Shown here: positions 12,337 to 35,753 of the stretch, one piece after another | Layout of the letters: each line of letters starts with the position of its first letter | Numbering within the stretch: the stretch's first letter is position 1 | DNA from: a virus | IMG/VR virus record: IMGVR_UViG_3300020429_000529 | Span: 198,762 to 262,761 of that record | Strand: one strand, 5' to 3' | DNA length: 64,000 nucleotides | Program-made: the position numbers and the translations under genes | Notes under the pieces: generated by a model | Database searches by the model: none | What the model was told of the DNA's origin: nothing | Seen by the model: the letters and a program-made list of their open reading frames with translations, nothing else

Positions 12337-12770
12337 TGAAGATTGCGCTACCAGGCAAGACTGATGTCCTACGAGTTGGATCGGACCCCATTCTGTTGAG
12401 CAGAATGAAGGGCGTTCATGTGGACTTCGATGGTAAGCGAGTTTTGTATCAGGCGTGGGTCGTTACGAGCGATCACAACAAGCTCAAGCCTCCCATGAAG
12501 AACGTCATCGCAACCGATTCGTTCGAGATTCAGTCTGCTGGTACTTTTACGTCTGACAACGTATCGCATCCGTGCCATGTCCATCGGGCTGTTTATCACG
12601 CTGCAAAGCATATGTATCTTGTCGAGTTCACGTGCGGGCTCGATATGGAATCTGATCTGAAACCTACAACCATACAAAAAGGCATGTCGAATACACCGAA
12701 TACTGAAACAGACATAGCCGTTAAGGATGTTGCTGATAATGGCAGAGGAAACTTCATCGAGTTCGACTAA
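12333..12770 (+). CDS. hypothetical protein ending in RGNFIEFD
   Basis: 145-aa ORF. The C-terminal motif is similar to that of the preceding ORF. Confidence 0.4.
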   Translation: MMKIALPGKTDVLRVGSDPILLSRMKGVHVDFDGKRVLYQAWVVTSDHNKLKPPMKNVIATDSFEIQSAGTFTSDNVSHPCHVHRAVYHAAKHMYLVEFTCGLDMESDLKPTTIQKGMSNTPNTETDIAVKDVADNGRGNFIEFD

Positions 12771-13515
12771 GAGTATCAACGAACTCTCGGGCGCTCACAA
12801 AGAGCAGATGGCCTTCATTCTCGGAGCGGGGCCATCTCTACATTTCCAGGACTTAGAACCGCTTCATAACTATGTCACCTTTGCTGTCAATTCTGGTCTC
12901 CTAAAGATGCCAGATTGCGATTACTTTGTGACAGATGATGGCGCTGCGGCAGATTGGAACTACTTCAGAGACACCGCCAAGAATAGCCATTGCAAGAAGC
13001 TTCTTTTCCGCGCCAAGCTAAAGAAGTCGGCATCTCACTTTCGCCAAAATGAAGTCTTCTGGTACGATCATGTCAGAGAGCATAGCCCTGACTTTGACGG
13101 AGCCAATCTGAACGGCTATGAAATGGGACCAGTCAATCCTCTCATGGCCGCAAGAACCTCAGCAGGGTCAGCGGTACATGCTGCGCACATCATGGGGTGT
13201 AGTCCGATTGTTCTTCTCGGATGCGATTCGTGTCATAAGTACGGCAAGCGATATTTCTGGCAGTTCCCCAAGGAAGAGAAAGCGTACCGAGTCAATGATT
13301 CTCGACCGCCTTGGACAAAGGCTGACAGAGGCCAGCTTAGGGGCAAGCCGGTTGACCAGCATTGCATAGATTTCGATGTCTATTGGAAGCGAGTTGCCAA
13401 GGCCAATCCTGGTGTAAACATCATCTATGCGTCAGAGGGTGGACTGATTGATGCGTTCCCGTCGATGAAGCTGACAGAAGTGTTAGCGGAATACGGCGGG
13501 CGCACCAAGCAATGA
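12727..13515 (+). CDS. GT42/DUF115 (MAF, CstII-like) putative nonulosonic-acid (sialyl) transferase, paralog 1
   Basis: An N-terminal GAGPSL motif and an LLGCDSCH motif resemble CstII GNGPSL ... LSGIDFY. It is a tandem paralog of the next gene. Confidence 0.5.
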   Translation: MLLIMAEETSSSSTKSINELSGAHKEQMAFILGAGPSLHFQDLEPLHNYVTFAVNSGLLKMPDCDYFVTDDGAAADWNYFRDTAKNSHCKKLLFRAKLKKSASHFRQNEVFWYDHVREHSPDFDGANLNGYEMGPVNPLMAARTSAGSAVHAAHIMGCSPIVLLGCDSCHKYGKRYFWQFPKEEKAYRVNDSRPPWTKADRGQLRGKPVDQHCIDFDVYWKRVAKANPGVNIIYASEGGLIDAFPSMKLTEVLAEYGGRTKQ

Positions 13516-14261
13516 ACCTCAAAGACCTCGAAGACAAGCATAAGGGCAAACTCGGGTTTGTAGTAGGAGCAGGGCCATCGCTCCATTTTCAAGATGTTGA
13601 GCCCCTTAGCAACTACGTCACAATAACCGCAAACTCGGGTATTCTCAAAATTCCAGATTGCGACTACTTCGTCAGCGATGACGAAGGCGTTCGCCATTGG
13701 AACTACTACAGAGTCACAGCCAAAAACAGTAAGTGTACCAAGCTACTGTATCGAGCCAAGCTCGGAGATCATATCGGGCACTTCAAGCCCGAAGAGGTTT
13801 TGCTCTTTGATCACAAATCCTGGTATGAGCCAAGCAAAAGGGCATGGAAAGAAGGCGGCGGAACGATGACCAAGGATGCCGAAGCACCGATTATTGGCGC
13901 TCGGACATCTCTTGCAACCGGCCTTCATTGGGCTCACATTATGGGTTGCGATCCCATCGTTCTTCTCGGGTGCGATTGCTGCTACAAGGGTCGTAACCGT
14001 TACTTCTGGCAGTTCCCTGGTGAAACCAAGGGATACCAGATGAATAACCGACCTGTCTTTTCTACTCCGAATCGAGGGTTGAAAAAGAACAAGCCGGTCG
14101 ATAATCACTGTGTTGACTTCCTTGAGTATTGGAAGAAGCTCGCCGAAGAAGCCAAAGGCGTTGCGAACATCATCTACGCATCAGAGGGCGGCATCCTTGA
14201 TGTCTTTCCTTCGATGACTCTGGTTGAGGTTCTTGAGAAGTACGGAGATAGGACCAAATGA
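13512..14261 (+). CDS. GT42/DUF115-like putative sialyltransferase, paralog 2 (tandem duplicate)
   Basis: GAGPSLHFQDVEPLSNYVTITANSGILKIPDCDYFVSDD and LLGCDCCYKG are highly similar to the preceding ORF. Confidence 0.5.
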   Translation: MNLKDLEDKHKGKLGFVVGAGPSLHFQDVEPLSNYVTITANSGILKIPDCDYFVSDDEGVRHWNYYRVTAKNSKCTKLLYRAKLGDHIGHFKPEEVLLFDHKSWYEPSKRAWKEGGGTMTKDAEAPIIGARTSLATGLHWAHIMGCDPIVLLGCDCCYKGRNRYFWQFPGETKGYQMNNRPVFSTPNRGLKKNKPVDNHCVDFLEYWKKLAEEAKGVANIIYASEGGILDVFPSMTLVEVLEKYGDRTK

Positions 14262-14962: not shown

Positions 14963-14972
14963 GGGAGAAAAC

Positions 14973-15845
14973 GTGGAATACCCAACCCCTAATGTCATTG
15001 CCGAGATTGGCTGCGTGCATCTCGGTAAACCTGAAAGAGCTAAAGAGCTATGTAAGCTGGCAAAGCTTTGCTCCGCAGATTACGTCAAGTTCCAAAAGAG
15101 GAATCCCGAAGAGAGTACGCCTGTTCATATGAGGGACAAGCCTCATCCGAACAAGATCTTTGCTTACGGCGAGACTTACCTTGAGCATCGCCAGAATCTC
15201 GAACTCAGCATCATTGAGCATGCGGAGATCAAGCAGTTCTGCGAAGATATCGGTATCGGTTACTCGACATCGGTCTGGGATCTCACTTCAGCAAAAGAGG
15301 TCGTAGAGCTTGACCCCGAGTTTGTGAAGATCCCGAGCGCTTGCAATCAACACTATGAGATGCTGAAGTATCTCGTTGACAACTTCAAGGGCGATATTCA
15401 TGTTTCAACGGGCATGACTGATCGAAATGAGATGCAAGCTCTTCGCGAGTTTGTAGGTCAGAATCCCGATCGCTTTGTTGTCTACCATTGCACGAGCAAG
15501 TACCCATGCGAGTTTGATGATCTTCACTTGCTTGAGATAGAACGTCTCAAAAGCGAATGGAAGACCCGCATTGGTTTCAGCAACCACGGTAAGGGTATCG
15601 CTGCGGATGTAGCGGCATACATGCTTGGCGCAGAATGGATCGAGCGACACTTTGTTGATGATCGAACAATGCGTCATACTGATGCTGCTGCGAGTCTTGA
15701 GTCGCCCGGATTGCAGAGGCTCTGCAGAGACTTGAGAGCGATCCGTCGTGCATTGGTAAATCGGCCAGATGAAATGGACGAAGAAGAGTTGCTGCAGCGG
15801 CACAAGATGAAGTTCCACGGAGACAGTTATGGGTCTGGACATTGA
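14973..15845 (+). CDS. neuB: NeuB-family nonulosonic acid (sialic/legionaminic/pseudaminic) synthase, TIM-barrel core only
   Basis: IAEIGCVHLGKPERAKELCKLAKLCSADYVKFQKRNPEE matches the NeuB N-terminus. There is no C-terminal SAF domain. GTG start. Confidence 0.7.
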   Translation: MEYPTPNVIAEIGCVHLGKPERAKELCKLAKLCSADYVKFQKRNPEESTPVHMRDKPHPNKIFAYGETYLEHRQNLELSIIEHAEIKQFCEDIGIGYSTSVWDLTSAKEVVELDPEFVKIPSACNQHYEMLKYLVDNFKGDIHVSTGMTDRNEMQALREFVGQNPDRFVVYHCTSKYPCEFDDLHLLEIERLKSEWKTRIGFSNHGKGIAADVAAYMLGAEWIERHFVDDRTMRHTDAAASLESPGLQRLCRDLRAIRRALVNRPDEMDEEELLQRHKMKFHGDSYGSGH

Positions 15846-16317
15846 TAAGGTCAAGATGTTTGCGGTCGATGTTGATGGAACGCTCACAAACGGTCTCTAC
15901 ACCGTGGACGAATCAGGCATCGTTTCCAAGAGCTTTCATACCCGAGATTTTTACGCGCTCAATCGAATGAAGCAGCTTGGCTTCACGATTGTCATCATCA
16001 CATCAGCGCAAGATACTGTCATCGAAGAGAAGTGCCGTCCATTCGATTTCCTTGTCTATACAGGTGTTGAGAACAAGGCCGAAGAGATGGGCCGCATCCT
16101 GAAAGCTCACAAGATGAAGTGGGAGAATCTTGGGTATATCGGAGACGCAGAGAACGATCTTGAGTGCATGTCACATGCGGCATTCACAGGATGCCCTCTG
16201 GATGCAATCCCCGAAGTTGCAGAAAGTATCAATTATCAGTCTGTCCAGCACGGCGGGCACGCTGCTGTCTATGACATTATGCGTAAGTATTGCGATTACG
16301 CTGCTCTCGACTGGTGA
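15829..16317 (+). CDS. KdsC-like HAD phosphatase (nonulosonate-9-phosphate or KDO-8-P phosphatase)
   Basis: FAVDVDGTLTNG (DxDGT motif) and GDAENDLECM motif III. Size and layout are typical of KdsC. Confidence 0.7.
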   Translation: MGLDIDKVKMFAVDVDGTLTNGLYTVDESGIVSKSFHTRDFYALNRMKQLGFTIVIITSAQDTVIEEKCRPFDFLVYTGVENKAEEMGRILKAHKMKWENLGYIGDAENDLECMSHAAFTGCPLDAIPEVAESINYQSVQHGGHAAVYDIMRKYCDYAALDW

Positions 16318-16342: not shown

Positions 16343-16753
16343 ATGTCAGAGTTTCACACGGTTCAGACCGAGTTTCTGCAGGACAATGAGGGAGCCTTGA
16401 TAAAGGCTCTGCAAGACATTGGGTACGAGCCCATTGTCTACGAAGACGCTGTTCATCTCGAAGGATACAGGGGAGACAAGAGAGAGCAGAAGGCTCACAT
16501 TGTCATTCCTCGCAAACAGATCAGCAACGCCAGCAACGATATCGGATTCGAGCGATTGGAGAACGGCAAGTACCGTCTTCATGTTTCTGAGTTCGATGAG
16601 ACTGGCTGGAAGAAGCAGTCTGAGAAACTGGTTCAGTATTACGGCAAGGCTGTTGTAGAGTCGATCGCTGAGTCTTCTGACTACTCGATGGTTGAGGAAG
16701 TTGAGGACGAAGATGGCACCATCCGTATCCGTATGCGGATCAACGAGTATTGA
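16343..16753 (+). CDS. DUF1257-like protein
   Basis: MSEFHTVQTEFLQDNEGALIKALQDIGYEP...GYRGDKREQKAHIVIPRKQ...DIGFERLENGKYRLHVSEFD matches the pattern I recall for the DUF1257 family. Confidence 0.4.
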   Translation: MSEFHTVQTEFLQDNEGALIKALQDIGYEPIVYEDAVHLEGYRGDKREQKAHIVIPRKQISNASNDIGFERLENGKYRLHVSEFDETGWKKQSEKLVQYYGKAVVESIAESSDYSMVEEVEDEDGTIRIRMRINEY

Positions 16754-17675
16754 TCTCGCTGATGGGCGGATCGAATGCTCGCTCTGTCCGATCCGCTGCA
16801 AGCTCCGTGAGGGACAGCGAGGCCGTTGCATGGCTCGGTACTCGGATGGTCAGTCGATCCTCTTAGAAGCCCCTCAGATCAGTTCTGCGGCTATCGAGCC
16901 GATCGAGAAGAAACCTCTCTATCACTACAAGCCCAATCTTCGAACTCTGTCGTTCGGAGGTTATGGCTGCAACATGTCCTGCGATTTTTGTCAGAACTGG
17001 ATGGTTTCGCAAGAGAAGCCTTCTGATCTGATGGACGGCTATCAGCTTATCAGTATGGCCCGAGAGCATGAATGCGATGCTCTCTGTATGACATACAACG
17101 AGCCGCTGATCTACTTTGAGTTCTTAGATTTCCTGCGACAGTCTTGGGATCAAGATCTGGTCATCAAAACCAATGCCTATTGCGAGGCCGATCCATGGTC
17201 TGAGGTCTGCGATTGGGTCGATGCCATGAATATCGACTGGAAGGGCTCTGAGGCTCGCTACAGGGCTGTCGCAAAGACAGATGGGGCGACGACCCTTCGA
17301 CGCATCGAAGAGGCTCTGGCGGCGTCTGTGCATGTCGAGATCAGCGTTCCTGTCTATCTTGATGGAGAGGATGACGAGTACCTCGATTTTGCTGATTGGT
17401 TGTCGAGCCTCGATCGATCAACGCCTATCCATCTGCTCAAGCTCTTTCCCGCATTCAGGAACGTGTCGCAGCCTGCTACTCCCGACAAGAAGATCTCTCG
17501 TATCCGAGATGCGATGCTTGAGCGTCTTGATTACGTCTATGCTCACAATATCTTTGGCGAAGCTGGACGAGAGATGAAGAGAACCATCTGCAGATCTTGC
17601 GGGCAAAAAATCGCTGATCGGACGGGTCTTCGTACCGAGTTTTCTGTCTGTGGATGCGGCACGATTAGGACATAA
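16692..17675 (+). CDS. radical SAM enzyme (PflA / AmmeMemoRadiSam-like)
   Basis: The CNMSCDFCQNW CxxxCxxC cluster and an N-terminal Cys motif (CSLCPIRCKL...GRC) resemble PFL-activating-enzyme-like radical SAM proteins. It lies inside the glycan island. The start is uncertain (16692 or 16713). Confidence 0.65.
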   Translation: MRKLRTKMAPSVSVCGSTSIDLADGRIECSLCPIRCKLREGQRGRCMARYSDGQSILLEAPQISSAAIEPIEKKPLYHYKPNLRTLSFGGYGCNMSCDFCQNWMVSQEKPSDLMDGYQLISMAREHECDALCMTYNEPLIYFEFLDFLRQSWDQDLVIKTNAYCEADPWSEVCDWVDAMNIDWKGSEARYRAVAKTDGATTLRRIEEALAASVHVEISVPVYLDGEDDEYLDFADWLSSLDRSTPIHLLKLFPAFRNVSQPATPDKKISRIRDAMLERLDYVYAHNIFGEAGREMKRTICRSCGQKIADRTGLRTEFSVCGCGTIRT

Positions 17676-17718: not shown

Positions 17719-18771
17719 ATGTCTAAACTCGATATCTTTCATGTCATACCGACGCTGTTTCCGTATGGGGCATATAGCTCGCTCTCGGAACTCCATTACG
17801 CAATCGACAAGTATTACGGAGACGTTGGACAATATATCTTGTCTCTGAAAGACGAGAATCATAAGGGGATGTTCGAACTCCCTCACAAGATCGTTCCATT
17901 GAGCGGTCTCAAAGCGAAGATCCAATCCAAGTCAACGAATCCGGTTGTCTTTTTTCACAAGCTCTCAGCGACAGATTGCAAGCCTGTGTCCGCTGTTCTT
18001 TACAATGACATACCCTTTGTCATTGTAAATCATACGCAGACTAATAAGCCGAGAGGTTTTGCTCGCAACAATGGTATCGTTGCGGTGTCCGATCATATGT
18101 ACCAAACATTGTCAAAGGGCTTCAAGGGATTCAATTTTCATCGTATCCGAAATGGCGTCAACGGCGAACGCTATGAGAACATCGAGCCCTATTACCCTGA
18201 CGAAGTTGAAGGCTACTTTGTTACGGGTCGGATGAACAACTTCAATGGATGCAAGCATCCGAACGACTGGATCCCGTGGGTCAAGGCGACTTGGATCGGC
18301 TCTCCTCATTGGCATGACTATCTTGGCGACGGTCAATACTTTCAACGAGCCAGTCAGCAGGCCAACAAGCGGGGTCGATCAGCCATGCGACCCAATGTCT
18401 GCAATATGCCAGGTCGAATCAACGGCTTCAAAGACAAGGTTGCCTATCTGAAGCGATGGCAAGTATTCTTGTACGAGATCCGAGGAACTGAAGGTACGAG
18501 CATGGCTCTTCTCGAAGCGCTTGCTTGCGGAATCCCTGCCATCATCAACAACAAGCCAGGAAACCATGAGATTGTCACAAAGAAGGTCAATGGCTATGTC
18601 TACAACAGCAGAGAACAACTGCTTGCAAAGATAAAATACCTGGTTGAAAACCCAGCCTATCTTGAAGACTTGAGCGCCAGCACGAAGGCCAACTTTGATG
18701 CCAAGCTCGACGCAAGGTACATGGCGAAAGAATACGTCGATCTGGCGAAGAAGGTCATCAATGAGTTCTGA
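17719..18771 (+). CDS. GT-B glycosyltransferase (GT4-like)
   Basis: The C-terminal EGTSMALLEALACGIPAIINN motif is typical of the GT1/GT4 retaining glycosyltransferases. Confidence 0.65.
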   Translation: MSKLDIFHVIPTLFPYGAYSSLSELHYAIDKYYGDVGQYILSLKDENHKGMFELPHKIVPLSGLKAKIQSKSTNPVVFFHKLSATDCKPVSAVLYNDIPFVIVNHTQTNKPRGFARNNGIVAVSDHMYQTLSKGFKGFNFHRIRNGVNGERYENIEPYYPDEVEGYFVTGRMNNFNGCKHPNDWIPWVKATWIGSPHWHDYLGDGQYFQRASQQANKRGRSAMRPNVCNMPGRINGFKDKVAYLKRWQVFLYEIRGTEGTSMALLEALACGIPAIINNKPGNHEIVTKKVNGYVYNSREQLLAKIKYLVENPAYLEDLSASTKANFDAKLDARYMAKEYVDLAKKVINEF

Positions 18772-19540
18772 GAAGCCTCTGTTCTCTATTTTGACCTGCT
18801 CCTACAATCAGAAGCAGTTCCAAGGTGTTTGGCTGAAGTCCGTGTTGCGTCAGGACTATCGACCTCTTGAGGTTGTGTTTGTTGATGATTGCTCCGATAC
18901 AAACGATGCAAAAGCTCTTGAGAAGCATCGCAAGCTATTCGAGGATGCAGGTATAGATCTCACGATTCATCGCAATCAAGACAGTCTCTACTGCGCCTCT
19001 TCTTACCTTGAGGCTCTGCGTCTTGCTAAAGGAGACTACTTCGGGGTTGTTGACGCTGATGATGCTTTGACTGAGGGATCTGTTTCGGCTGTCATGAAGT
19101 GCTATCTCAAGCATCCTGATGTTGGCTTTATCTATACGCAGTTTGATTGGTGTAACTCTGAAATGGGAAACTGCCGCAGGGGATTCTGCAGACAACCAGC
19201 AAGGGGTCGTAATCTGTTGACGGGAGAGAAGAGTCCGCAGTCAAGGCATTGCTATTCTCACTGGCGGACGTTTAGGCGGCTTCCTGATATTGAGTCGATT
19301 TTCAAGCCAAGGTTGAGATGTTCAGTTGACAAGTATATGGGCTACCGTCTTGAGGAGTTGGCTCCAGGAGTCTTCTTAAATCGGGTATGTTACAAGTATC
19401 GTAACGGCGTATCTTCGGGGGTAACTCAAAACGAAAAGTCGATAGAAACATGGAAGTCGGTACGAAGAGAAGTCATGCGGCGCAGAAAAGCCAATCAAAC
19501 CAAGGTCTATCCAATCAGGACAATACAGACTAAACGATGA
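18761..19540 (+). CDS. GT2 family glycosyltransferase
   Basis: FSILTCSYNQ ... VVFVDDCSDTND is the GT-A N-terminal signature. The ORF track starts at 18695; the ATG at 18761 overlaps the upstream stop. Confidence 0.65.
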   Translation: MSSEKPLFSILTCSYNQKQFQGVWLKSVLRQDYRPLEVVFVDDCSDTNDAKALEKHRKLFEDAGIDLTIHRNQDSLYCASSYLEALRLAKGDYFGVVDADDALTEGSVSAVMKCYLKHPDVGFIYTQFDWCNSEMGNCRRGFCRQPARGRNLLTGEKSPQSRHCYSHWRTFRRLPDIESIFKPRLRCSVDKYMGYRLEELAPGVFLNRVCYKYRNGVSSGVTQNEKSIETWKSVRREVMRRRKANQTKVYPIRTIQTKR

Positions 19541-21271: not shown

Positions 21272-21273
21272 GT

Positions 21274-22134: not shown

Positions 22135-22135
22135 G

Positions 22136-28337: not shown

Positions 28338-29251
28338 TACTGTATGTTGGTCCAACTGAATACATGGATCTTGTCAAAGAAGTTTCCGGCATGTCGGTTT
28401 TTGCCGTCAACGACGAGCGAGAGATTGACATTCTCATACCGGAATGCGAATACATCCTCGATGCTTGCGTCAAGATCCCTTTTGATGCCAAGAGACTTTC
28501 GAGGGCCATGGTACTGAGGGCTTATGTTGCGGCATCAACGGGCACTTCTCACATTGATGTCGATCATCTTTCCGAGAGAAACATCCCGGTTTTGTCTCTT
28601 CTTGGTCGTCCTGAGATCAAGAATATCACATCGGCTGCCGAGCATTCATGGCATTTGTTGATGGCCGCTGCCAGAAATGTAAGAGCCTCAACGCAGCATG
28701 TTATCGACGGAGAGTGGGATCGGATGGCCTTCGATTCTCCCATGTTCATCGGTAGAACGCTTGGCGTCATCGGCTGCGGACGCATCGGAACTTGGATGGG
28801 AAGATACGCAACCGCTTTTGGCATGAATGTTGTCGGTTGCGATCCTCACGTGTCTGATTGGGAGTTTGAGCTTGCCGATATGGACGAGGTTCTGAGTCGT
28901 TCAGATTTTGTCACGATCAATGTCGCTTTGACCGATGATACGAAAGACATGATCGATCATGCTCAGTTGATGAAGATGAAGGATGGGGTCATCCTTGTCA
29001 ATACCTCCAATGGAGGCGTCATCAATGAGTACGCCTTGGCAGATAAGCTGATGTCGGGTAAGGTAGCTGCTGTAGGTCTTGATGTTCTGAAGAACGAACC
29101 CAACGTTCAAGAGAGCCCCCTTCTTGTTCTGGCTCGAAAGAATCCGAACATTGTCATAACCCCTCATATCGGAGGACGTAGCAGCGATGCCCTCAAGTAC
29201 GTCATCAAGTTCTGCGCAGAGCGAATCAGGGACCACGCCATACCTCGTTGA
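28319..29251 (+). CDS. D-isomer-specific 2-hydroxyacid dehydrogenase (phosphoglycerate dehydrogenase-like)
   Basis: Its NAD-binding motif is GVIGCGRIGTWMGRYATAFGMNVVGCDP. Catalytic-region motifs are present (VTPHIGG). Confidence 0.65.
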   Translation: MDGHLLILYVGPTEYMDLVKEVSGMSVFAVNDEREIDILIPECEYILDACVKIPFDAKRLSRAMVLRAYVAASTGTSHIDVDHLSERNIPVLSLLGRPEIKNITSAAEHSWHLLMAAARNVRASTQHVIDGEWDRMAFDSPMFIGRTLGVIGCGRIGTWMGRYATAFGMNVVGCDPHVSDWEFELADMDEVLSRSDFVTINVALTDDTKDMIDHAQLMKMKDGVILVNTSNGGVINEYALADKLMSGKVAAVGLDVLKNEPNVQESPLLVLARKNPNIVITPHIGGRSSDALKYVIKFCAERIRDHAIPR

Positions 29252-30611
29252 TGTAGCCTTTGGCGTTACGGGTAGCGGCAAATCTTGGCGAGTCGCCGAC
29301 AGCCTTGGGCCTCGATACATTCCGACGTATCACGAGGCTTCTGCTGCAATTATGGCCGGGGCTGTGAGTCTCAAAGGTTTCTTAGGGGCATCTCTTTCGA
29401 TCAAAGGGCCGGGCCTTACGAATGCCTTGCCGGGCATTGCAAACAACTTCTTTGAGAATCGACCGGCTCTCTCGATTTCTGAGCGATTCGAAGACGGATC
29501 AGAAAAGGCCCACAAAAGAGTAGACCATGACGCTCTCTTGCGACCCCTTGTGAAGGCAAGAGGACGACAAGGCTCTGACCTTGAAGTTCTATGGCATCGA
29601 GCAAGGATAGAACCTTGCGGTCCTGTTCATCAAGATCTTTGCGAGGGCGGAGAGATAGTTGTCGAGGCAGATCCGTATCGCCTGGATCCTGATGATTATC
29701 GCAAATCAAAGAGACCATCCATCCTTCTTGGAGGCGCTGCCTTGCGGAAGGGCGTTGATTTTTCGGGCGTCAACGTGCCCGTCTTTACGACTGCGACAGC
29801 GAAGGGTCTTCTCGATGAGTCGTTACCTCAGAGCGCTGGCGTCTTTACCGGGGTTGGGCTTGAGAACACCTGCGAGCCAATGACTGTTGCGGGCGATTGC
29901 GTTATCTGCGTTCAGGTTTACGATCATGAGCTTCTTTCTCCGCCTCCGAGGGCTAAGCACATAACGCTGAATGGCGTTGATGAGTTGCTGTCGTTCTTGG
30001 ATGGTAAAGAATGGGGTCTCCCGGTCATAGAGAAGACCAAGAGACAGCTTTCTGAGTTCAACATGGACGCCTGGTTGCCCTATCAGGCGTTTGACCATCT
30101 CAGCGCCCTTCCATGGCATCATGATGTTGTTGTCGATGTGGGGCTGTTCTCTGTCGTTGGAGAGCATGTCTGGCGGGCGTCTCCTGATAGAGGGTTCTAC
30201 GGAAGCCTGAATAGCCGCTATATGGGGACGGCGATCCCAACGGCCATCGGTCTCGGAGCAGTAAGCAAGAAGCCTATTTTCTGCGTCACCGGCGATGGCG
30301 GTTCCAATATGTACCTGACTGAGGCAAGAATCGCAGCAAACAGATCGATGCCCATCTGCTTCGTCATCATGTCCGATGGACGTTACGGAAGTATCGCACA
30401 GTCTTCGTCTGAACTGTATCAAGATGCTGTGAATATCTCTGCTCCCGATCATCGGGTTTTTGAAACATTTGGCATAGAGACTCATCAGGCTTTCTCGTTC
30501 AACTCTTTCGCGCACTACGTCGATACTTGGGATAGGGAATCTCCGCTCGCAATCTTCTGCTCGTTTGACCAAGATAGATATGCGACAATGACGAGAGGCT
30601 TGCGAAGATGA
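29187..30611 (+). CDS. thiamine-diphosphate-dependent enzyme (acetolactate synthase / sulfopyruvate decarboxylase / YerE-like carboligase family)
   Basis: The N-terminal Pyr domain is VDVAFGVTGSG. The C-terminal TPP-binding motif is GDGGSNMYLTEARIAANRSMPICFVIMSDGRYGSI (GDG-x24-N). The start overlaps the upstream gene by 65 nt. Confidence 0.6.
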   Translation: MPSSTSSSSAQSESGTTPYLVDVAFGVTGSGKSWRVADSLGPRYIPTYHEASAAIMAGAVSLKGFLGASLSIKGPGLTNALPGIANNFFENRPALSISERFEDGSEKAHKRVDHDALLRPLVKARGRQGSDLEVLWHRARIEPCGPVHQDLCEGGEIVVEADPYRLDPDDYRKSKRPSILLGGAALRKGVDFSGVNVPVFTTATAKGLLDESLPQSAGVFTGVGLENTCEPMTVAGDCVICVQVYDHELLSPPPRAKHITLNGVDELLSFLDGKEWGLPVIEKTKRQLSEFNMDAWLPYQAFDHLSALPWHHDVVVDVGLFSVVGEHVWRASPDRGFYGSLNSRYMGTAIPTAIGLGAVSKKPIFCVTGDGGSNMYLTEARIAANRSMPICFVIMSDGRYGSIAQSSSELYQDAVNISAPDHRVFETFGIETHQAFSFNSFAHYVDTWDRESPLAIFCSFDQDRYATMTRGLRR

Positions 30612-31582
30612 AGATACTGATACTTGGCGCTGGTTCGGTCGGTAAACGACATGCTCGTAATCTGAAAGAGCTTGGCGCTGATGTGTCTGTTTTTGACCCC
30701 AGGGAAGACCGTCGCAAAGAATGCGAAGACTTTACCGAATACCAGTTTGATGATTTAGTTTCTGTGTTTGATATCAACTGGGACGGAGCCGTTATAGCTT
30801 CGCCTCCTCATGTCCACTGCGAGCAGTTGCAGATGCTCGCAGAACGAAACATCCCGACTCTTCTTGAGAAACCGATCTGTCCAACAAGAGACGCTGCCCT
30901 TGAGACGTACAGAAAGATCGGCGGCTTCTCCAAGAAAGTCATTCTTGGGTACTCGTATCGCTGGTGGGCTCCGTTCTTGTTCTTCAAAGAGAGTCTGAGC
31001 GAGGTTGGCGATATTTTGCGAGTTGAATGCAGTATGGCTGCTCATCTTGAGGATTGGCATCCTTGGGAGTCTTACAAGGATTTCTTCATGGCTCATAAAG
31101 AGCAGGGCGGAGGCGCTTTGCTGGATGAGAGTCATGTTATTGATCTCATGCTGTGGCTATTTGGCGCTCCCAGGAAGCTTTTTGGCTGCGTAAGCAAGGT
31201 CAGCGACCTCGATATCACGACCGATGACAATGTTGACACAATCTGGTATTACGATGATAAGATCGTTCAGATTCATCTTGATTTGCATCGTCGTCCGCAT
31301 GAAAGGTCCATCAAGGCTTACGGTACAAATGGTCAGTTGACATGGAGCTTTGACGAGGTTCGCATGGACCCTAAAGACGGACCAGGTAGATCTCATAAGT
31401 TTGAGATAGAACGCAACGAAATGTTCATGCATACGGCAAGAGAGTTCTTGGATTTCATTCGCAACGGGTCTCCTTTGCGATGCTCGCTTGCCGATGGTAT
31501 ATGGGCTCTCGATATGGTTGAGGCCATCAGAGAAAGTTCACAGAAGGAAGAGGTAGTCAAATGCTCTCTGTCGCGATTGTAG
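30608..31582 (+). CDS. Gfo/Idh/MocA-family NAD(P) oxidoreductase
   Basis: MKILILGAGSVGKRHARNL Rossmann N-terminus and EKP motif (LLEKPICPT). Confidence 0.65.
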   Translation: MKILILGAGSVGKRHARNLKELGADVSVFDPREDRRKECEDFTEYQFDDLVSVFDINWDGAVIASPPHVHCEQLQMLAERNIPTLLEKPICPTRDAALETYRKIGGFSKKVILGYSYRWWAPFLFFKESLSEVGDILRVECSMAAHLEDWHPWESYKDFFMAHKEQGGGALLDESHVIDLMLWLFGAPRKLFGCVSKVSDLDITTDDNVDTIWYYDDKIVQIHLDLHRRPHERSIKAYGTNGQLTWSFDEVRMDPKDGPGRSHKFEIERNEMFMHTAREFLDFIRNGSPLRCSLADGIWALDMVEAIRESSQKEEVVKCSLSRL

Positions 31583-32232
31583 TCAATGCAAGGCTCGGTT
31601 CTTCGAGACTGCCGAACAAGATCATCAAGCCTTTCGGAGACACAACTCTCCTTGATATCGCTCTGAAGAAACTTGCAGCCATCGATAATCGAGAGAAGTA
31701 TCTCGCTGTTCATGACCAAGAACTGATCGATATCTATCGGAAGTACGAGAACGACATAGGCCTTATAGTGAGGTCTCCTGAATCGGTAGAGAAGGGAGCG
31801 GTTCCTCATCATATCGCTTTCCAGCACTACATGGATGTCAACGCCGATTCTGTCATGGTCATGAACCCTTGCCATCCCTTTACTCGACCTGAGACATACG
31901 AGAATGCTATTCAGCACTATATCGCAAAGGGTATGAGGTCCATGACATCTGTTGTCAAGAAGGAGAACATCTTCTTCGACCAGAACGGAGGGGTCGTGAA
32001 CTCCTCAAAGCAAAGGGAAGTCACGACTGTTGGGCATGACGCTCTATTCGAGATGGCGCATGCCTTCCATATCTTCCCGAAGAATGCCTTCCAAGAGGGC
32101 AGCAAAATTTGGAGCTATGAGTACGGCGATCCTGAGATGTATATTGTTGACAAGATGTCAGCCCTTGATGTAGATGATGAGATCGACTTCGCTCTCTGCG
32201 AAGGACTATACAAGAGCAATGCGAGAGATTAG
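31561..32232 (+). CDS. second CMP-sugar cytidylyltransferase (CTP_transf_3 family; CMP-nonulosonate synthetase-like)
   Basis: VAIVVNARLGSSRLPNKIIKPFGDTTLL is the N-terminal signature. Confidence 0.6.
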   Translation: MLSVAIVVNARLGSSRLPNKIIKPFGDTTLLDIALKKLAAIDNREKYLAVHDQELIDIYRKYENDIGLIVRSPESVEKGAVPHHIAFQHYMDVNADSVMVMNPCHPFTRPETYENAIQHYIAKGMRSMTSVVKKENIFFDQNGGVVNSSKQREVTTVGHDALFEMAHAFHIFPKNAFQEGSKIWSYEYGDPEMYIVDKMSALDVDDEIDFALCEGLYKSNARD

Positions 32233-32818
32233 TCTTGAACAATACATCATATCGAGAAGACCGATACTTGACAAAGAAGGCAAGTTCATTTTCTTCCCCA
32301 CGCATAAAGCATGCATGACATCCATTCAGCATGTGCTGAGGGATCGTATACTGACTCACAAAAAGCATGGTAAGAAGTACCAGAAGGCATTGAGAGCGGC
32401 AGCGGCATACCCCAAGGGGTACTACAAGTTCACGGTTGTTCGCAATCCCTATGACAGAACACTGTCTGCTTACAGGTATCTGAGCAAGATCAAGAGATAT
32501 CGAACTCTTGCGGAAGATAGGTTTAGGGACTTTTGCGTTAAGGGACTGGTTGGCTATTTGGGAGATGCGCATTTTTCGCACCAGCATCACAATGTCATGT
32601 TCCAAAACAGTCAGTTTGTTGACTTCGTTGCAAGATTCGAGAACATCGATACTGATTGGGAGATAATCGCTAACACGATTGGCTGCAAGGCCTCGCTTCC
32701 TGTCAAGAATGCGTCGAAGAAGAAGGTTGACTATCGAGACTACTACACGGACATGTCCAAGAAGACAGTCAAAAAGATATACAAGAATGATCTGAGGATA
32801 TTAGGGTATGACTTCTAA
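32174..32818 (+). CDS. second carbohydrate sulfotransferase
   Basis: FIFFPTHKACMTSIQHVL (5'-PSB-like) and VRNPYDRTLSAYRY (3'-PB RDPxxRxxSxY-like). Confidence 0.6.
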   Translation: MMRSTSLSAKDYTRAMREISLEQYIISRRPILDKEGKFIFFPTHKACMTSIQHVLRDRILTHKKHGKKYQKALRAAAAYPKGYYKFTVVRNPYDRTLSAYRYLSKIKRYRTLAEDRFRDFCVKGLVGYLGDAHFSHQHHNVMFQNSQFVDFVARFENIDTDWEIIANTIGCKASLPVKNASKKKVDYRDYYTDMSKKTVKKIYKNDLRILGYDF

Positions 32819-33911
32819 GCTCGTCGTTCCAATGTCAAACCGAACGAACTACACGAAGATACGCCCCGTGTTGTTTGAGCTTCAGAAGCATCCTGAGGTT
32901 GATGTCTCGGTTATTCTTAGCTCGGCCATACTCCTTGACGAGTACGGAGGAGCATGCAAGGATATAGAGAAGGACGGCTTCAGGATCGCCGCCAACATTG
33001 ATTGTCTATTCAAGAGCGATAGCCTCTCTGCAATGTCAAAGACGGTTGCGGTGTCTCTTCTTGAGCATACCTCGACCTTTGATCGCATCGAAGCAGATGG
33101 CATGATGTTGGTTGGAGATCGATTTGACATTTTGGGCTCTGTGCTTGCGGCAAGAATGCTCAATGTCCCGATCTTTCATATTCAGGGCGGCGAGATCACT
33201 GGCTCGATTGATGATGCTGTTCGAGACATGATTAGCGTCTGCTCTTCGAGGCATTATGTTGCCACCGATGCAGCCGCAGAACGGCTCAAGTCGATTGTCA
33301 AGCAGCCAGAGAACATCTTCAACTACGGCTGCCCTGCTGTAGAGATGATTGCCAAGACAATCATCGGAGATCCATGCCATGAGGTTTGGGGGCAAGTCGG
33401 ATTGAGCTACGGCGAAGAGTTTTTCTTGATTGCTCTCCATCCCAATACGGATGACAAGAACGATGTCGATTTCGATGTCATTATGGATGGCGTCAATCAG
33501 TTTGACAAGAAGTGTCTGATCTTTCAGCCAAATCCTGATGCGTTCAACTCGTACATCAGAGACAAGATGAACGCCATGAACTCGGACAGGCTCAGGGTCA
33601 TCAAGCATTTGCCGGTTGAATCGTTCGTTGTTCTGATGGCTCATACCAAATGCATGATCGGGAACTCAAGCGCTGGTATTCGAGAGGCCGCAAGCTTCGG
33701 AACGCCTGTTGTCAACATTGGCAAGAGGCAGAGATTCAGAGAGAGAAATCACAACGTGATCGATGTAGATTGCGGGAAAAATGAGATCGCTGATGCGATA
33801 ACGAAGTCTCTTGAAATCGGTCGATACGAGAGAAAGAACATCTATTACAAGACGGATGCATCGAAGCTCATTGCGAGCGATATTGTTTCAACTCTAACGG
33901 AGAAGTCATGA
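32808..33911 (+). CDS. neuC: UDP-N-acetylglucosamine 2-epimerase (NeuC-like, probably hydrolysing)
   Basis: The overall epimerase_2 layout is present. The N-terminal segment is TNYTKIRPVLFELQKHPEVDVSVI. The HIQGGE motif and the C-terminal GNSSAGIREA segment are present. Confidence 0.7.
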   Translation: MTSKLVVPMSNRTNYTKIRPVLFELQKHPEVDVSVILSSAILLDEYGGACKDIEKDGFRIAANIDCLFKSDSLSAMSKTVAVSLLEHTSTFDRIEADGMMLVGDRFDILGSVLAARMLNVPIFHIQGGEITGSIDDAVRDMISVCSSRHYVATDAAAERLKSIVKQPENIFNYGCPAVEMIAKTIIGDPCHEVWGQVGLSYGEEFFLIALHPNTDDKNDVDFDVIMDGVNQFDKKCLIFQPNPDAFNSYIRDKMNAMNSDRLRVIKHLPVESFVVLMAHTKCMIGNSSAGIREAASFGTPVVNIGKRQRFRERNHNVIDVDCGKNEIADAITKSLEIGRYERKNIYYKTDASKLIASDIVSTLTEKS

Positions 33912-34846
33912 AGATACTTGTCACAGGAGCTTCGGGTCAGATCGGAGCCAATCTCATAGATCGCTGGGAAGGCGAGGCCGTTGGCGTTGACCGCAACCCT
34001 CAACCATGGCCCATTAGCCACGATCGATTGGAGTTCGTACACGCTGATCTTATGGACCCGAACTGGCATGAATCAGTCAACTGGAACGACATCGACTTCC
34101 TTGTTCATTTTGCTGCATATGCCAAGGTTCATGAACTTGTTGTTGAGCCTCGAAAGGCGCTGGAGAACATTCAGGTTCTCTACAATGCTCTCGAAGTTGC
34201 CCGAGACAAGAAGTTGCCGTTTCTCTTTTCGAGTTCGAGAGAGGTCTACGGCAATATCCAAGAAAGGGATCGTCCCATCGATGAGGACGATTACGACCTC
34301 ATGCAGGAGAGCCCCTACAGCGCAAGCAAGCTCTCGGGAGAGGCAATGGTTCATGGGTTCGCCAACTGCTACGGCATGAAGTGCGGCATCATTCGCTTCA
34401 GTAATGTGTATGGGCGATTTGACAACGATCTTGAGAGAATGGAGCGAGTGATCCCGCTGTTCTTCAAGAAGATAGCCAACGATGAGCCGATCGAGGTTTA
34501 TGGGCCTGAGAAGACTCTTGACTTCACATATGTTGCGGACGCTGTTGCGGGTATCAAGTCTGCCATCCGTCATGTCAGCGAGAAAATGAAACCAGGAAGC
34601 GTTGAGACGTTCAATCTGGCTTATGGGAGCGGGCACTCGCTGAGAGAGCTTGTGATGTTCATTTCCGAGGCTGTAGGCAAGGTTCCCGACGTTTCTTGGC
34701 AGAAGCCCAGGGTAGGAGAGGTCTGTTGGTATGTTGCGGATATTGACCATGCGAAGACATGGCTTGATTTTGATCCTCAAGTGAGTCTTCGAGAGGGGAT
34801 TCAAAAAACCGCCCAATGGTACAGGGAGACTGGATTCATCTCATGA
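33908..34846 (+). CDS. NAD-dependent epimerase/dehydratase (extended SDR)
   Basis: MKILVTGASGQIGANLI (GxxGxxG) and YSASK catalytic motif. Confidence 0.7.
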   Translation: MKILVTGASGQIGANLIDRWEGEAVGVDRNPQPWPISHDRLEFVHADLMDPNWHESVNWNDIDFLVHFAAYAKVHELVVEPRKALENIQVLYNALEVARDKKLPFLFSSSREVYGNIQERDRPIDEDDYDLMQESPYSASKLSGEAMVHGFANCYGMKCGIIRFSNVYGRFDNDLERMERVIPLFFKKIANDEPIEVYGPEKTLDFTYVADAVAGIKSAIRHVSEKMKPGSVETFNLAYGSGHSLRELVMFISEAVGKVPDVSWQKPRVGEVCWYVADIDHAKTWLDFDPQVSLREGIQKTAQWYRETGFIS

Positions 34847-34889
34847 ATCTGGCCGATGTCATAGAATGTAACTGCAGGAGGATCTCTAA

Positions 34890-35753
34890 ATGCAAACAGT
34901 AGCCATCATCGGTCACGGATACGTTGGTCAAGCGATGACCGGATTCTTCCGAGACCATTACAACCTCGTTGTTGTTGACACCAAGTTCGCAGGCGATATC
35001 GTTGAGGGGCAGGTCGGCGGAACCGATCCGATCTGCACTTTCACCAAGGACTACAGAGCCGCCAATGGCGCAGACCTCGTTGTCGTCTGTCTGCCAACTC
35101 CGAGAGACGAAAAGGGGTTCTGCGATACCTCTCTTGTCGAAGAGGCGTTGCGGACGATTGAGGCTCCGTTCTTCATCATCAAGTCTACGGTTGAGCCTGG
35201 AACGACCAAGAAGCTCCAAGAAGAGACAGGCAAGAACATTGTCTTTGCTCCCGAGTTCGCTGGTGAGTCAAGGTACTGGACTGAATACAAGTTCCACACG
35301 GATGTCAAGGAGACGCCATGGTTTGTCTTCGGAGGCGAGCCCGAGTGGACGGAGAAGGCAGTCCAGTTCTACATCAAGGTTGCAGGCCCAACCAAGACCT
35401 ATCATCAGACAGACTGCACTACGGCGGAACTCGTCAAATACATCGAGAACACTTTCTTCGCCATGAAGGTTGCTTTCTGCTATGAAGTCGATCAGGTCTG
35501 CAAGACCTTTGGCGTTGACTACTACAAGCTTCGCACTGCTTGGTTGCTTGATCCAAGGCTCAGCCCGATGCATACGGCAGTCTTCGAGGAGAGCGAGAAG
35601 CCATTCGGCGGTAAGTGCTTCCCGAAGGACGTTTCTGCGATCGTAGAAGCAAGCTCTGCTAATGGATATGAACCTGAGTTGCTCAGGGAAATCTTGAAGT
35701 CAAATGAGCGCATTGGCGAGATTAGGCGAGAGCAGCACGCCAAGAAACAGTGA
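34890..35753 (+). CDS. UDP-glucose/GDP-mannose dehydrogenase family protein lacking the C-terminal UDP-binding domain
   Basis: N-terminal VAIIGHGYVGQAMT NAD-binding motif. The catalytic motif FGGKCFPKDV (GGxCFxKD) is present. The ORF ends about 100 aa short of the full-length family. Confidence 0.5.
   Translation: MQTVAIIGHGYVGQAMTGFFRDHYNLVVVDTKFAGDIVEGQVGGTDPICTFTKDYRAANGADLVVVCLPTPRDEKGFCDTSLVEEALRTIEAPFFIIKSTVEPGTTKKLQEETGKNIVFAPEFAGESRYWTEYKFHTDVKETPWFVFGGEPEWTEKAVQFYIKVAGPTKTYHQTDCTTAELVKYIENTFFAMKVAFCYEVDQVCKTFGVDYYKLRTAWLLDPRLSPMHTAVFEESEKPFGGKCFPKDVSAIVEASSANGYEPELLREILKSNERIGEIRREQHAKKQ

Follow-up and report, generated by a model that had tools for sequence, protein, structure and literature searches.

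What does a long run of sugar genes do inside the replication module of an uncultivated marine phage of ~500 kb, and to what would its product be attached? The run lies on a contig of 498.6 kb, in the 64-kb stretch of DNA that was analysed here (the window, 64,000 nucleotides). A first-pass annotation had counted about 28 same-strand genes between positions 12727 and 35753; we found 29 ORFs on one strand in these ~23 kb, and neighbouring ORFs mostly overlap or abut, with gaps of -77 to +43 nt (Table 1). Gene identities were established by Pfam and NCBIfam profile searches, with PHROG profiles used for some ORFs. The island consists of three parts, a clade-conserved core (12727-16317), a hypervariable block of glycosyltransferases and a sulfotransferase (17719-27562) and a second cassette (27540-33911), and it very probably represents phage-encoded machinery for a nonulosonate glycan. 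To the whole proposal, a three-part phage island whose glycan would be assembled in the cytoplasm with a virion protein as the likeliest acceptor, we assign a probability of about 0.5.

Table 1. ORFs of the glycan island, with positions in the window and supporting matches.
Position	Strand	Assignment	Evidence
12727..13515	+	DUF115/MptE-like (Maf-like) putative CMP-nonulosonate transferase, copy 1	PF01973 36.7 bits, cut-off 34.6
13512..14261	+	DUF115/MptE-like (Maf-like) putative CMP-nonulosonate transferase, copy 2	just above gathering score
14258..14962	+	CMP-nonulosonate synthetase 1	CTP_transf_3 3e-21; PseF-like 110 bits, below cut-off; motif PARAGSKGVPGKN
14973..15845	+	nonulosonate synthase NeuB1, without SAF domain	PF03102 1e-61
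15829..16317	+	KdsC-type HAD phosphatase, nonulosonate-9-phosphate phosphatase candidate	KdsC 2e-23, Kdn-9-P phosphatase 5e-19, both below cut-off
16343..16753	+	DUF1257 protein	PF06868 9e-12
16692..17675	+	radical SAM enzyme, AmmeMemoRadiSam type	TIGR04337 187 bits, cut-off 220; CxxxCxxC at residue 93
17719..18771	+	GT4 (GT-B) glycosyltransferase	Glycos_transf_1 9e-16
18695..19540	+	GT2 (GT-A) glycosyltransferase	Glycos_transf_2 1e-18
19537..20478	+	GT4 glycosyltransferase	Glyco_trans_1_4 6e-13
20447..21271	+	GT2 glycosyltransferase	Glycos_transf_2 8e-26
21274..22134	+	GT4-like protein, below threshold	Glyco_trans_1_4 23.4 bits, cut-off 27
22136..22894	+	GT2 glycosyltransferase	Glycos_transf_2 7e-29
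22891..23508	+	carbohydrate sulfotransferase 1 (Sulfotransfer_2)	PF03567 1e-12; PHROG 3347 7e-21
23508..24140	+	protein with 'LEIGSG' SAM-binding-like motif only	motif read from sequence
24137..24787	+	weak DUF115-like paralogue	hhalign vs DUF115 profile E 2.5e-5, probability 75%
24784..25443	+	weak DUF115-like paralogue	PF01973 20 bits, below cut-off; hhalign E 1.9e-3
25407..26102	+	protein with 'DDD' motif only	no profile match
26095..26904	+	protein without assigned family	no profile match
26885..27562	+	class I SAM methyltransferase	Methyltransf_11 2e-21
27540..28337	+	nonulosonate synthase NeuB2, without SAF domain	PF03102 4e-45
28319..29251	+	D-2-hydroxyacid (PGDH-like) dehydrogenase	2-Hacid_dh_C 5e-49
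29187..30611	+	acetolactate-synthase-like TPP enzyme	TPP N, M, C domains
30608..31582	+	GFO/IDH/MocA oxidoreductase	Pfam match
31561..32232	+	CMP-nonulosonate synthetase 2	CTP_transf_3 4e-13
32174..32818	+	carbohydrate sulfotransferase 2 (Sulfotransfer_2)	PF03567 2e-10; PAPS-binding motifs HKACMTS, RNPYDRTLS
32808..33911	+	hydrolysing UDP-GlcNAc 2-epimerase NeuC	TIGR03568 311 bits, equivalog cut-off 236
33908..34846	+	SDR nucleotide-sugar epimerase/dehydratase	PF01370 2e-42
34890..35753	+	UGDH-type nucleotide-sugar dehydrogenase without C-terminal domain	UDPG_MGDP_dh N-terminal + central domains only

Most of the island's gene families are typical of bacterial surface-polysaccharide loci, and one relative has been binned into a 'Pacearchaeota' MAG, as might be expected if host LPS or capsule DNA had been joined to the phage by misassembly or recent capture. 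This is extremely unlikely. The island is flanked by phage genes for a UvsX-like recombinase, a Cas4-like exonuclease, a UvrD helicase and DNA methyltransferases, and by a topoisomerase, a clamp loader, a dNMP kinase, DnaB and DnaG, with Pol III alpha in split form; phage structural genes were found neither in the window nor in the fetched flanks. Its tetranucleotide composition correlates with that of the flanks at 0.86-0.94 and its GC3 is indistinguishable from theirs. ENA, NCBI, JGI, Logan and Tara data each yielded the same arrangement in separate assemblies, on contigs of up to 498-502 kb, and the closest homologues of NeuB1 and of the DUF115 proteins all lie on such contigs, none in named bacteria. 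Position within the replication module, flank-like composition and left-hand synteny with phage replication genes, kept in related viral contigs, thus establish the island as phage DNA, part of the viral replicon.

The core is the part that the relatives share. DUF115, cytidylyltransferase and NeuB genes were found close together on 11 IMG/VR contigs of 65-548 kb, ten of which also have a match to the phosphatase. In L007-L013 the core genes are adjacent and in the same order, with conserved upstream synteny; in L014-L017 they are scattered over several kb or lie on the opposite strand. The cassette is also kept in relatives from NCBI (389 kb) and Tara (487 kb), and the DUF1257 gene is close to it in several relatives. 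Identity across divergent phages falls to 46% for NeuB and to about 36% for DUF115. The exact NeuB1 protein occurs on 23 contigs, the longest contig being 0.2-1 Mb in 10 of the collection blocks read, and homologues at least 54% identical form more than 100 metagenomic clusters, all of about 280-300 aa. Judging by sequence, a whole clade of marine huge phages has kept the core, at a fixed spot in the replication module. The remainder is variable: the glycosyltransferase block is absent from the 389-kb relative, and that of the Tara relative differs, with three GT4, one GT9, a methyltransferase and an SDR.

The two NeuB synthases and two CMP-sugar cytidylyltransferases predicted earlier were both upheld by the profiles. 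The catalytic residues of NeuB1 align with those of N. meningitidis NeuB, except for a Cys at E134; in NeuB2, 28% identical to NeuB1, every catalytic residue checked is kept. The KdsC-like phosphatase has the HAD motifs DVDGT and GDAEND. The scores of the two NeuBs, the two cytidylyltransferases and the phosphatase all fall far short of the NCBIfam equivalog cut-offs, so we can only infer their substrates, and the products and acceptor discussed below are likewise predictions.

CMP-Kdn is made from Man-6-P and PEP by three enzymes, a synthase, a phosphatase and a cytidylyltransferase (PMC6200933). The core holds the same set, plus a transferase. The SAF-less NeuB1 would condense a phosphorylated hexose with PEP, in the simplest case mannose-6-phosphate to Kdn-9-phosphate, alternatively ManNAc-6-phosphate; the phosphatase would then remove the phosphate and the cytidylyltransferase would form the CMP-sugar. 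We regard a Kdn-type route only tentatively as that of the core. The activated sugar could be moved onto an acceptor by one or two of the small Maf-like DUF115 enzymes, which are 54% identical to each other here and are present at this position in one or two copies in relatives. They had been labelled GT42-like, but no match to Cst-II was found at the sequence level, and in structure comparison Maf was the closest fold and an archaeal pterin pyrophosphokinase the second. Maf is a cytoplasmic protein O-glycosyltransferase with CMP-nonulosonates as donors. Four such proteins had been proposed; the two core copies pass the DUF115 threshold, whereas 24137 and 24784 (24% identical) are weak paralogues, and the AF2 model of 24784 was unusable (pLDDT 48). 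For the DUF1257 and radical SAM proteins a glycan role could not be demonstrated, and a link to the pathway is uncertain.

In the hypervariable block, about nine glycosyltransferases had been expected. Five are solid and one is below threshold; 25407 and 26095 had no match in Pfam, NCBIfam or PHROG profiles. Similarly, of two supposed SAM methyltransferases, 26885 is supported, whereas 23508 has the motif only and matched nothing in Pfam, NCBIfam or PHROG. Both carbohydrate sulfotransferases were confirmed, the one in this block with the PAPS-binding motifs NRCAGNS and RNPWDKMLS. The GT2 and GT4 enzymes, sulfotransferase, methyltransferase, weak DUF115 paralogues and unassigned proteins may together build and decorate the remaining glycan.

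Polysaccharide loci of cellular genomes show the gene order of the second cassette as well. The nearest homologues of its TPP enzyme (35-45%) are always found in the order NeuB, 2-Hacid_dh, TPP, GFO, cytidylyltransferase; the 2-hydroxyacid dehydrogenase shares 44-47% identity with its syntenic counterparts in the cellular loci L034 and L036, and the GFO protein 43% with that in L036. Sulfotransferase 2 is an insertion, missing from this cassette elsewhere. NeuC, which scores above its equivalog cut-off, would convert UDP-GlcNAc to ManNAc and NeuB2 would make a sialic acid, which the dehydrogenase, TPP enzyme and GFO-type oxidoreductase might tailor before cytidylyltransferase 2 activates it. 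The SDR, which reaches no NCBIfam equivalog, and the truncated dehydrogenase would accompany this route; the C-terminal domain of the latter is not encoded in any downstream frame, and the enzyme may be inactive. The remaining sugar-enzyme and radical SAM calls of the first-pass annotation were borne out by the profiles.

Two distinct nonulosonic-acid routes, as had been suggested, are supported by the different content and evolutionary history of the cassettes, and two chemically different CMP-sugars are probably made. Pseudaminic or legionaminic acid, proposed as a possible product, is unlikely because the island has no aminotransferase, and no N-acetyltransferase was found in it either. Nor is the toolkit complete, as had been claimed: the Pfam profiles revealed no flippase, polymerase, priming phosphoglycosyltransferase, ligase or transporter among the island ORFs, which also lack PAPS synthesis genes.

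Since all 29 island proteins are predicted to be soluble (no 19-residue hydrophobic window >1.6), the glycan would be assembled in the cytoplasm of the infected cell. The lack of transmembrane helices and export machinery favours glycosylation of virion proteins there, and we place these as acceptor at somewhat less than even odds. The main rival, which we consider rather unlikely, is remodelling of the host envelope, in which the same enzymes would act on undecaprenyl- or other lipid-linked intermediates of the host, or on its flagellin, pilin or S-layer proteins, and the product would be displayed by flippase, ligase or secretion systems that the host itself supplies; during a long infection, the altered surface could lead to superinfection exclusion, mask receptors or let the cell escape grazers. 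Enzymes of the GT2 and GT4 families that work on undecaprenyl-linked intermediates are likewise soluble or peripheral, so the absence of membrane proteins is compatible with use of host export machinery. These families are typical of surface-polysaccharide pathways, the second-cassette homologues share their cellular surface-polysaccharide loci with Poly_export, Bac_transf and Glyphos_transf genes, Maf proteins normally act on flagellin, a host protein, and the hypervariable block recalls the diversity of O-antigen and capsule loci. However, the island brings none of the membrane or export functions of such pathways, and its core is conserved across divergent phages whose hosts, probably different, would have different envelope machinery, so an acceptor intrinsic to the phage fits better.

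An improbable reading is that the island merely supplies precursors, the DUF115 proteins being kinases or pyrophosphokinases like archaeal MptE, the second fold match, which might phosphorylate the hexose of NeuB1, while pools of activated sugars are boosted or redirected for host transferases. Still less credible is glycosylation of modified phage bases as a protection from restriction, known from T-even phages and from other viruses whose DNA bears diverse glycans. The island does lie in the replication module, with DNA methyltransferases and a dNMP kinase as neighbours, and virus-encoded transferases that place diverse glycans on DNA have been described (Pyle et al. 2024, as cited in PMC12619734). 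Yet the profiled window ORFs (all but ~20 mostly small flank ORFs) yielded neither a base hydroxymethylase nor any other enzyme of base modification, and Maf-like and sialyltransferase-like folds work on proteins or glycans. To our knowledge, neither CMP-nonulosonates nor sulfation have ever been reported on DNA.

The island belongs to a known category, virus-encoded glycosylation clusters. In the literature searched, we found no comparable phage pathway with two sialic-acid-like sugars in a sulfated, methylated glycan. The gene mix is not unique to this phage. Profile matches show NeuB together with sulfotransferase in at least one independent lineage of viruses: L020, a 52-kb viral contig unrelated to this phage, has two NeuB, two sulfotransferases, a methyltransferase and a weak, sub-threshold GT29-like match. 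In addition, a published 484-kb phage (LR756508.1) has, by tblastn only, a NeuB homologue ~10 kb or less from sulfotransferase- and SDR-like matches. Overall, the locus first noticed is confirmed and its interpretation is partly supported. If virion proteins are the acceptor, these phages would have a particle coat that is acidic, sulfated and variable between strains.

The island consists of 29 consecutive ORFs on one strand, mainly overlapping or abutting (gaps of −77 to +43 nt); in a promoter and terminator scan of the window, promoter-like sites occurred at chance level. The ORFs were profiled with Pfam, NCBIfam and PHROGs. Nearly all the family assignments of the first-pass annotation were supported by Pfam and NCBIfam, although its counts were somewhat generous. 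Both NeuB synthases that it had named match Pfam (NeuB1, E = 1e-61; NeuB2, 4e-45), both cytidylyltransferases match CTP_transf_3, the phosphatase is by profile a KdsC-like HAD phosphatase, and the two carbohydrate sulfotransferases are Sulfotransfer_2 proteins. The count of two SAM methyltransferases stands for one Methyltransf_11 protein, whereas the other, 23508, has a LEIGSG motif only, and the approximately nine glycosyltransferases came down to three GT2 and two GT4 proteins and one sub-threshold GT4-like protein. Two of the four proteins described as GT42/DUF115-like are MptE-like/DUF115 proteins (PF01973), barely over the gathering score; 24137 and 24784 are only weakly similar (hhalign E of 2.5e-5 and 1.9e-3 against the DUF115 profile). 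An AF2 model of 24784 from a two-sequence alignment had a pLDDT of 48 and was not used for a fold search. ORFs 23508, 25407 and 26095 gave no match in Pfam (E up to 5), NCBIfam or PHROGs. Profiles also identified a radical SAM enzyme with the CxxxCxxC motif, a 2-hydroxyacid dehydrogenase, an acetolactate-synthase-like TPP enzyme, a GFO/IDH/MocA oxidoreductase and an SDR protein. At the gene level a glycosylation cluster is well supported by these matches; its chemistry and target are predicted.

Features of the window and of two other contig stretches, with ORFs of the island named by start coordinate (L040, contig stretch just upstream of the window; L020, an unrelated 52-kb viral contig)
Position	Strand	Feature
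6110-6457	+	SpoVS homologue, conserved in all close relatives
12727-35753	+	Island
12727-16317	+	Part 1, core cassette
12727	+	DUF115 protein, copy 1
13512	+	DUF115 protein, copy 2
14258	+	Cytidylyltransferase
14973	+	NeuB1
15829	+	Phosphatase
16343-17675	+	DUF1257 (Ycf35-like) protein and AmmeMemoRadiSam-type radical SAM enzyme
17719-27562	+	Part 2, glycosyltransferase/sulfotransferase/methyltransferase block
22891	+	Sulfotransferase
27540-33911	+	Part 3, second cassette
27540	+	NeuB2
29187-30611	+	TPP enzyme
31561	+	Cytidylyltransferase
32174	+	Sulfotransferase
32808-33911	+	NeuC
34890-35753	+	Nucleotide-sugar dehydrogenase, NAD-binding and central domains only
44950-45741	+	Homing-endonuclease-like ORF, LAGLIDADG and AP2 domains
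49243-50382	+	Full-length phage DnaJ (J domain, zinc-finger domain, C-terminal domain)
51840-52772		Second SDR nucleotide-sugar epimerase/dehydratase, 16 kb downstream of the island
52765-53451		Weak 2OG-Fe(II) oxygenase, downstream of the island
53448-54509	-	Subtilase, downstream of the island
58421-61165	+	914-aa protein, centre matching tRNA nucleotidyltransferase (CCA-adding enzyme), large N- and C-terminal extensions
L040 4632-9682		Pol III alpha in two ORFs with three small ORFs between; several N6/N4 DNA methyltransferases
L020 6648-8108		NeuB domain fused to a C-terminal cupin, adjoining two sulfotransferases and a weak GT29-like protein

The placement of the island in the viral replicon rather than in host LPS or capsule DNA agrees with its flanking replication genes, its composition and the synteny of its relatives. 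The window lies within the 498,610-bp contig ERZ17089788 NODE_1289088, and independent assemblies from ENA, NCBI, JGI, Logan and Tara data contain the same genes. Genes in the flanks include those for a UvsX-like recombinase, a Cas4-like exonuclease, a UvrD helicase, N6/N4 DNA methyltransferases, a topoisomerase, a clamp loader, a dNMP kinase, a sigma-like factor, DnaJ and a tRNA nucleotidyltransferase, and the stretch just upstream of the window adds DnaB, DnaG and a Pol III alpha divided between two ORFs. The tetranucleotide correlation between island and flanks was 0.86–0.94 (flank against flank, 0.97), and GC3 was the same. NeuB1 homologues with 46–62% identity occur on 11 IMG/VR viral contigs of 65–548 kb; the upstream synteny (exonuclease, SpoVS, helicase, methyltransferase) is kept in seven of them (L007-L013) and was not detected in L014-L016, and in L017 the genes are inverted. 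Phage replication genes on both sides of the island and its synteny in viral contigs thus indicate the replicon of a tailed huge phage, and composition, synteny and the independent assemblies all speak against host DNA contamination, which was rejected. It is also unlikely that the locus is an assembly artefact. In the approximately 85 kb read of the 498.6-kb contig (window and L040), no terminase, portal, major capsid or tail genes were seen. The window carries no tRNA genes and so offers no host hint from them.

Other genes near the island were also noted. Homologues of the homing-endonuclease-like ORF are variously placed beside the core cassette (L011, L012, L013, L017 and L038), and these different positions suggest a mobile element hopping around the locus. 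In several relatives, the DUF1257 and radical SAM pair stays together near the core cassette; neither AMMECR1 nor Memo was seen as a partner. The UDP-binding C-terminal domain of the nucleotide-sugar dehydrogenase is present in no downstream frame, and the gene may be decayed or may encode a non-canonical enzyme.

The NeuB TIM-barrel domain (PF03102) scored 208.9 bits in NeuB1 and 154.7 bits in NeuB2, against a gathering cut-off of 22.1. Both proteins were aligned to N. meningitidis NeuB and checked at the catalytic and metal-binding positions E25, K53, Q55, K129, S132, E134, S154, Y186, S213, H215, E234, H236 and D247, in what we take to be the numbering of 1XUU. NeuB2 retains every residue, and NeuB1 all but E134, where it has a Cys. 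The C-terminal SAF/antifreeze-like domain, which in canonical NeuB proteins forms the remaining part of the sugar site, had no match in NeuB1 (290 aa) or NeuB2 (265 aa); short forms of NeuB exist elsewhere, for example PDB 6ncs (290 aa). The substrates are not assignable, because both proteins scored below the equivalog cut-offs for N-acetylneuraminate synthase (TIGR03569: 174 and 152 bits, cut-off 400) and pseudaminate synthase (TIGR03586: 119 bits each, cut-off 340). The proposed NeuC passed the curated cut-off for the hydrolysing UDP-GlcNAc 2-epimerase (TIGR03568), with 311.4 bits against 235.9. The phosphatase has the HAD motifs DVDGT and GDAEND; it scored 69 bits with the Kdn-9-P phosphatase model (cut-off 180) and 83 bits with KdsC (cut-off 208).

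The core cassette comprises a DUF115 gene in tandem duplicate (54% identity), the cytidylyltransferase, the short NeuB1 and the phosphatase. DUF115, cytidylyltransferase and NeuB1 genes are present in all 11 IMG/VR relatives and the phosphatase in 10, and the same genes lie adjacent in L007-L013 and in further contigs of 389 kb and 487 kb. The closest 120 database clusters listed have at least 54% identity for NeuB1 and at least 42% for DUF115; several are on contigs of 170–580 kb, and one contig among them is binned as 'Candidatus Pacearchaeota'. The cytidylyltransferase, synthase and phosphatase genes are contiguous, as would be expected for a route of the CMP-Kdn type. In Bacteroides thetaiotaomicron and Prymnesium parvum, CMP-Kdn is made from mannose-6-phosphate and PEP by a 9-phosphate synthase, a KdsC-type phosphatase and a cytidylyltransferase (PMC6200933). 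The core cassette is like this pathway in its enzyme set and its start from a central metabolite; it differs in that the phage adds a dedicated putative transferase, and in that its phosphatase and synthase fall far under the equivalog cut-offs. Part 1 might thus make a CMP-Kdn-type sugar from mannose-6-phosphate and PEP, which the DUF115 transferase would then use. Because it draws on a central metabolite that is universal, such a route would be a good match for a cassette that phages retain across different hosts. All three enzymes score far below equivalog cut-offs, and their specificity is putative.

The closest fold to the two DUF115 proteins (262 and 249 aa) is that of Maf, with 193 residues aligned to the 632-residue protein; the multidomain layout of Maf (about 600 aa with flanking N- and C-terminal domains) was not found in either. 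Compared with the Maf flagellin glycosylation islands of Campylobacter, Aeromonas and Magnetospirillum (PDB 5mu5), in which Maf has about 630 aa, the phage proteins are about 250 aa long without flanking domains, the pseudaminic/legionaminic pathway (dehydratase, aminotransferase, acetyltransferase) is missing and no flagellin is involved. Membership in GT42 (Cst-I/Cst-II), as had been proposed, was not borne out at the sequence level. With what we take to be the Cst-II sequence, the hhalign match was weak and local and the catalytic histidine was not convincingly aligned, and a conserved Cst-II-type active site was therefore rejected. Sequence searches of the PDB with the DUF115 protein and its 44-sequence profile gave chance matches only. 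Proteins of the DUF115 fold are frequent in uncultured phages and were also found in a choanoflagellate giant virus, Mimiviridae ChoanoV1, together with GT29-like proteins.

Part 2 is not conserved among the relatives. In the 487-kb Tara relative the same place holds a different set (three GT4, one GT9, a methyltransferase and an SDR), and in the 389-kb relative no block of this type was found there. The two sulfotransferases of the island scored 48.9 bits (22891) and 41.8 bits (32174) with PF03567, against a cut-off of 22, and 22891 matched PHROG 3347 at 7e-21. PAPS-binding motifs are recognisable in both (NRCAGNS/RNPWDKMLS in 22891 and HKACMTS/RNPYDRTLS in 32174), for binding of the 5'-phosphosulfate and the 3'-phosphate. 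A sequence search of the PDB with the sulfotransferase gave only chance matches.

The second cassette (part 3, or module 2) encodes NeuB2, the 2-hydroxyacid dehydrogenase, the TPP enzyme, the GFO oxidoreductase, a cytidylyltransferase and NeuC. Cellular-looking polysaccharide loci that also encode export and priming proteins (L034-L037) carry these six families in identical order, as does a 9.5-kb contig similar to a related phage, in which a Peptidase_S8 gene directly follows the cassette. Identity to the phage proteins is 27–47%. The cellular version has a full-length NeuB with SAF, whereas in the phage the NeuB is short and a sulfotransferase has been inserted; in addition, the cellular cassette sits among export and priming genes, which the phage island does not encode. 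Named homologues of the cellular six-gene cassette come from Methanocella, Phycisphaerae, Burkholderiales and Oligoflexia MAGs. Relatives of the TPP enzyme were obtained from a word-index protein search; single-sequence pattern scans of viral and genome collections gave none. Public gene calls start this enzyme later (419 aa, against 474 aa for the longest ORF); the 474-aa form is probably correct, as the match to the N-terminal TPP domain begins at its residue 21.

Because part 3 starts from UDP-GlcNAc via a bona fide NeuC, it is predicted to yield a sialic acid derived from ManNAc. Tailoring of this sugar presumably falls to the dehydrogenase, TPP enzyme and oxidoreductase, possibly by oxidation followed by TPP-dependent two-carbon addition, a sequence of steps that occurs in branched-sugar pathways. 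No description of the product of a TPP/2-hydroxyacid dehydrogenase cassette was found in the literature searched. The first-pass annotation had also suggested a legionaminic or pseudaminic sugar. The set of 4,6-dehydratase, DegT-type aminotransferase and N-acetyltransferase was not found, and since neither an aminotransferase nor an N-acetyltransferase family is present among the 29 ORFs, both acids are unlikely and were rejected as products.

As to where the glycan goes, no transmembrane helix was predicted in any of the 29 proteins (maximum 19-residue Kyte-Doolittle mean 1.53, below 1.6), and among the 29 ORFs there is no Pfam family for a priming phosphoglycosyltransferase, flippase, ABC transporter, polymerase or ligase. 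The island therefore cannot display a polysaccharide alone, and a self-sufficient capsule or O-antigen locus of the Wzx/Wzy or ABC type was rejected for lack of membrane components. Remodelling of the host envelope is a serious rival, in which the products would pass through the export machinery of the host. Our analysis favours cytoplasmic glycosylation of virion proteins, because the DUF115 proteins are closest in fold to a glycosyltransferase that acts on proteins in the cytoplasm, divergent phages keep the core, and strains differ in the outer block. Glycosylation of DNA is unlikely.

We rate the island as belonging with virus-encoded glycosylation clusters. Among giant viruses, the Mimivirus family has fibril glycosylation clusters, and Cafeteria roenbergensis virus has a bacterial-type carbohydrate island of about 38 kb that includes KDO synthesis. 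The phage island is like these in being a large, contiguous, virus-resident and clade-variable set of nucleotide-sugar and glycosyltransferase genes. The giant-virus enzymes act in the host cytoplasm or viral factory and decorate the particle, as those of the phage would do, with KDO, viosamine or bacillosamine as sugars; the phage island, in contrast, has a prokaryotic host and a tailed-phage-type replicon, and is predicted to make nine-carbon nonulosonates, with sulfotransferases in addition. In mycobacteriophages, capsid and tail proteins are glycosylated in the cytoplasm by soluble glycosyltransferases that the phage encodes, one or two of them, with host nucleotide sugars, according to the account of Freeman et al. 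2023 in PMC12619734. Unlike these, the 23-kb island is predicted to make its own activated sugars and to add sulfate and methyl groups, the acceptor being putative.

The whole island had no megablast match among 50,697 phage records, and NeuB is absent from PHROGs. NeuB matched three of the 50,697 deposited records, all of them annotation-free or a mislabelled bacterial contig, and sulfotransferase homologues were found in five. In the published 484-kb uncultured phage LR756508.1, tandem sulfotransferase-like matches and SDR-like matches lie no more than about 10 kb from a NeuB homologue (by tblastn only), and L020 (IMGVR_UViG_3300018080_000234) carries two NeuBs, two sulfotransferases, a weak sub-threshold GT29-like match, a methyltransferase and two GT8 proteins. 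The theme of this gene mix is therefore not unique to the window. The NeuB homologues of these two contigs are distant (32–36% identical) and differently arranged, and the DUF115/phosphatase core and the TPP cassette are absent from about 16 kb of L020 and 48 kb of LR756508.1. In the literature searched, neither contig is annotated or discussed, and no description was found of phage-encoded nonulosonate synthesis, sulfated phage glycans or marine megaphage glycan genes.

A further, more speculative reading is given about three chances in ten: a cosmopolitan clade of marine huge phages would coat its virions with an acidic, nonulosonate-capped glycan, anchored directly on virion proteins by small stand-alone Maf-like enzymes, with an outer part that varies between strains and is sulfated in some members. 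The NeuB/2-hydroxyacid dehydrogenase/TPP/GFO cassette, found also in many bacteria and archaea, would make an undescribed nonulosonate derivative, for example one that is C-branched or chain-extended by TPP-dependent carboligation. If true, this would be the first sialic-acid-type and the first sulfated glycan on a phage particle. If they function as predicted here, the small DUF115 enzymes would be of interest to biotechnology as minimal sialyltransferases for proteins or glycans. The core cassette is conserved in a clade of marine huge phages that is abundant but uncultivated, so that it could mark the lineage and offer a handle for capturing the particles with lectins or antibodies. The second cassette points to a sialic-acid derivative that has yet to be characterised and is widespread in the polysaccharide loci of cells as well. 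On cell surfaces, nonulosonic acids and sulfated glycans have key roles in recognition and masking. With a pathway of its own for them, a phage would have a new form of control over the way its particle or the infected cell is perceived; candidates for the perceiving side include host receptors and defences, grazers, marine gels and, in relatives associated with the gut or with animals, immune lectins.
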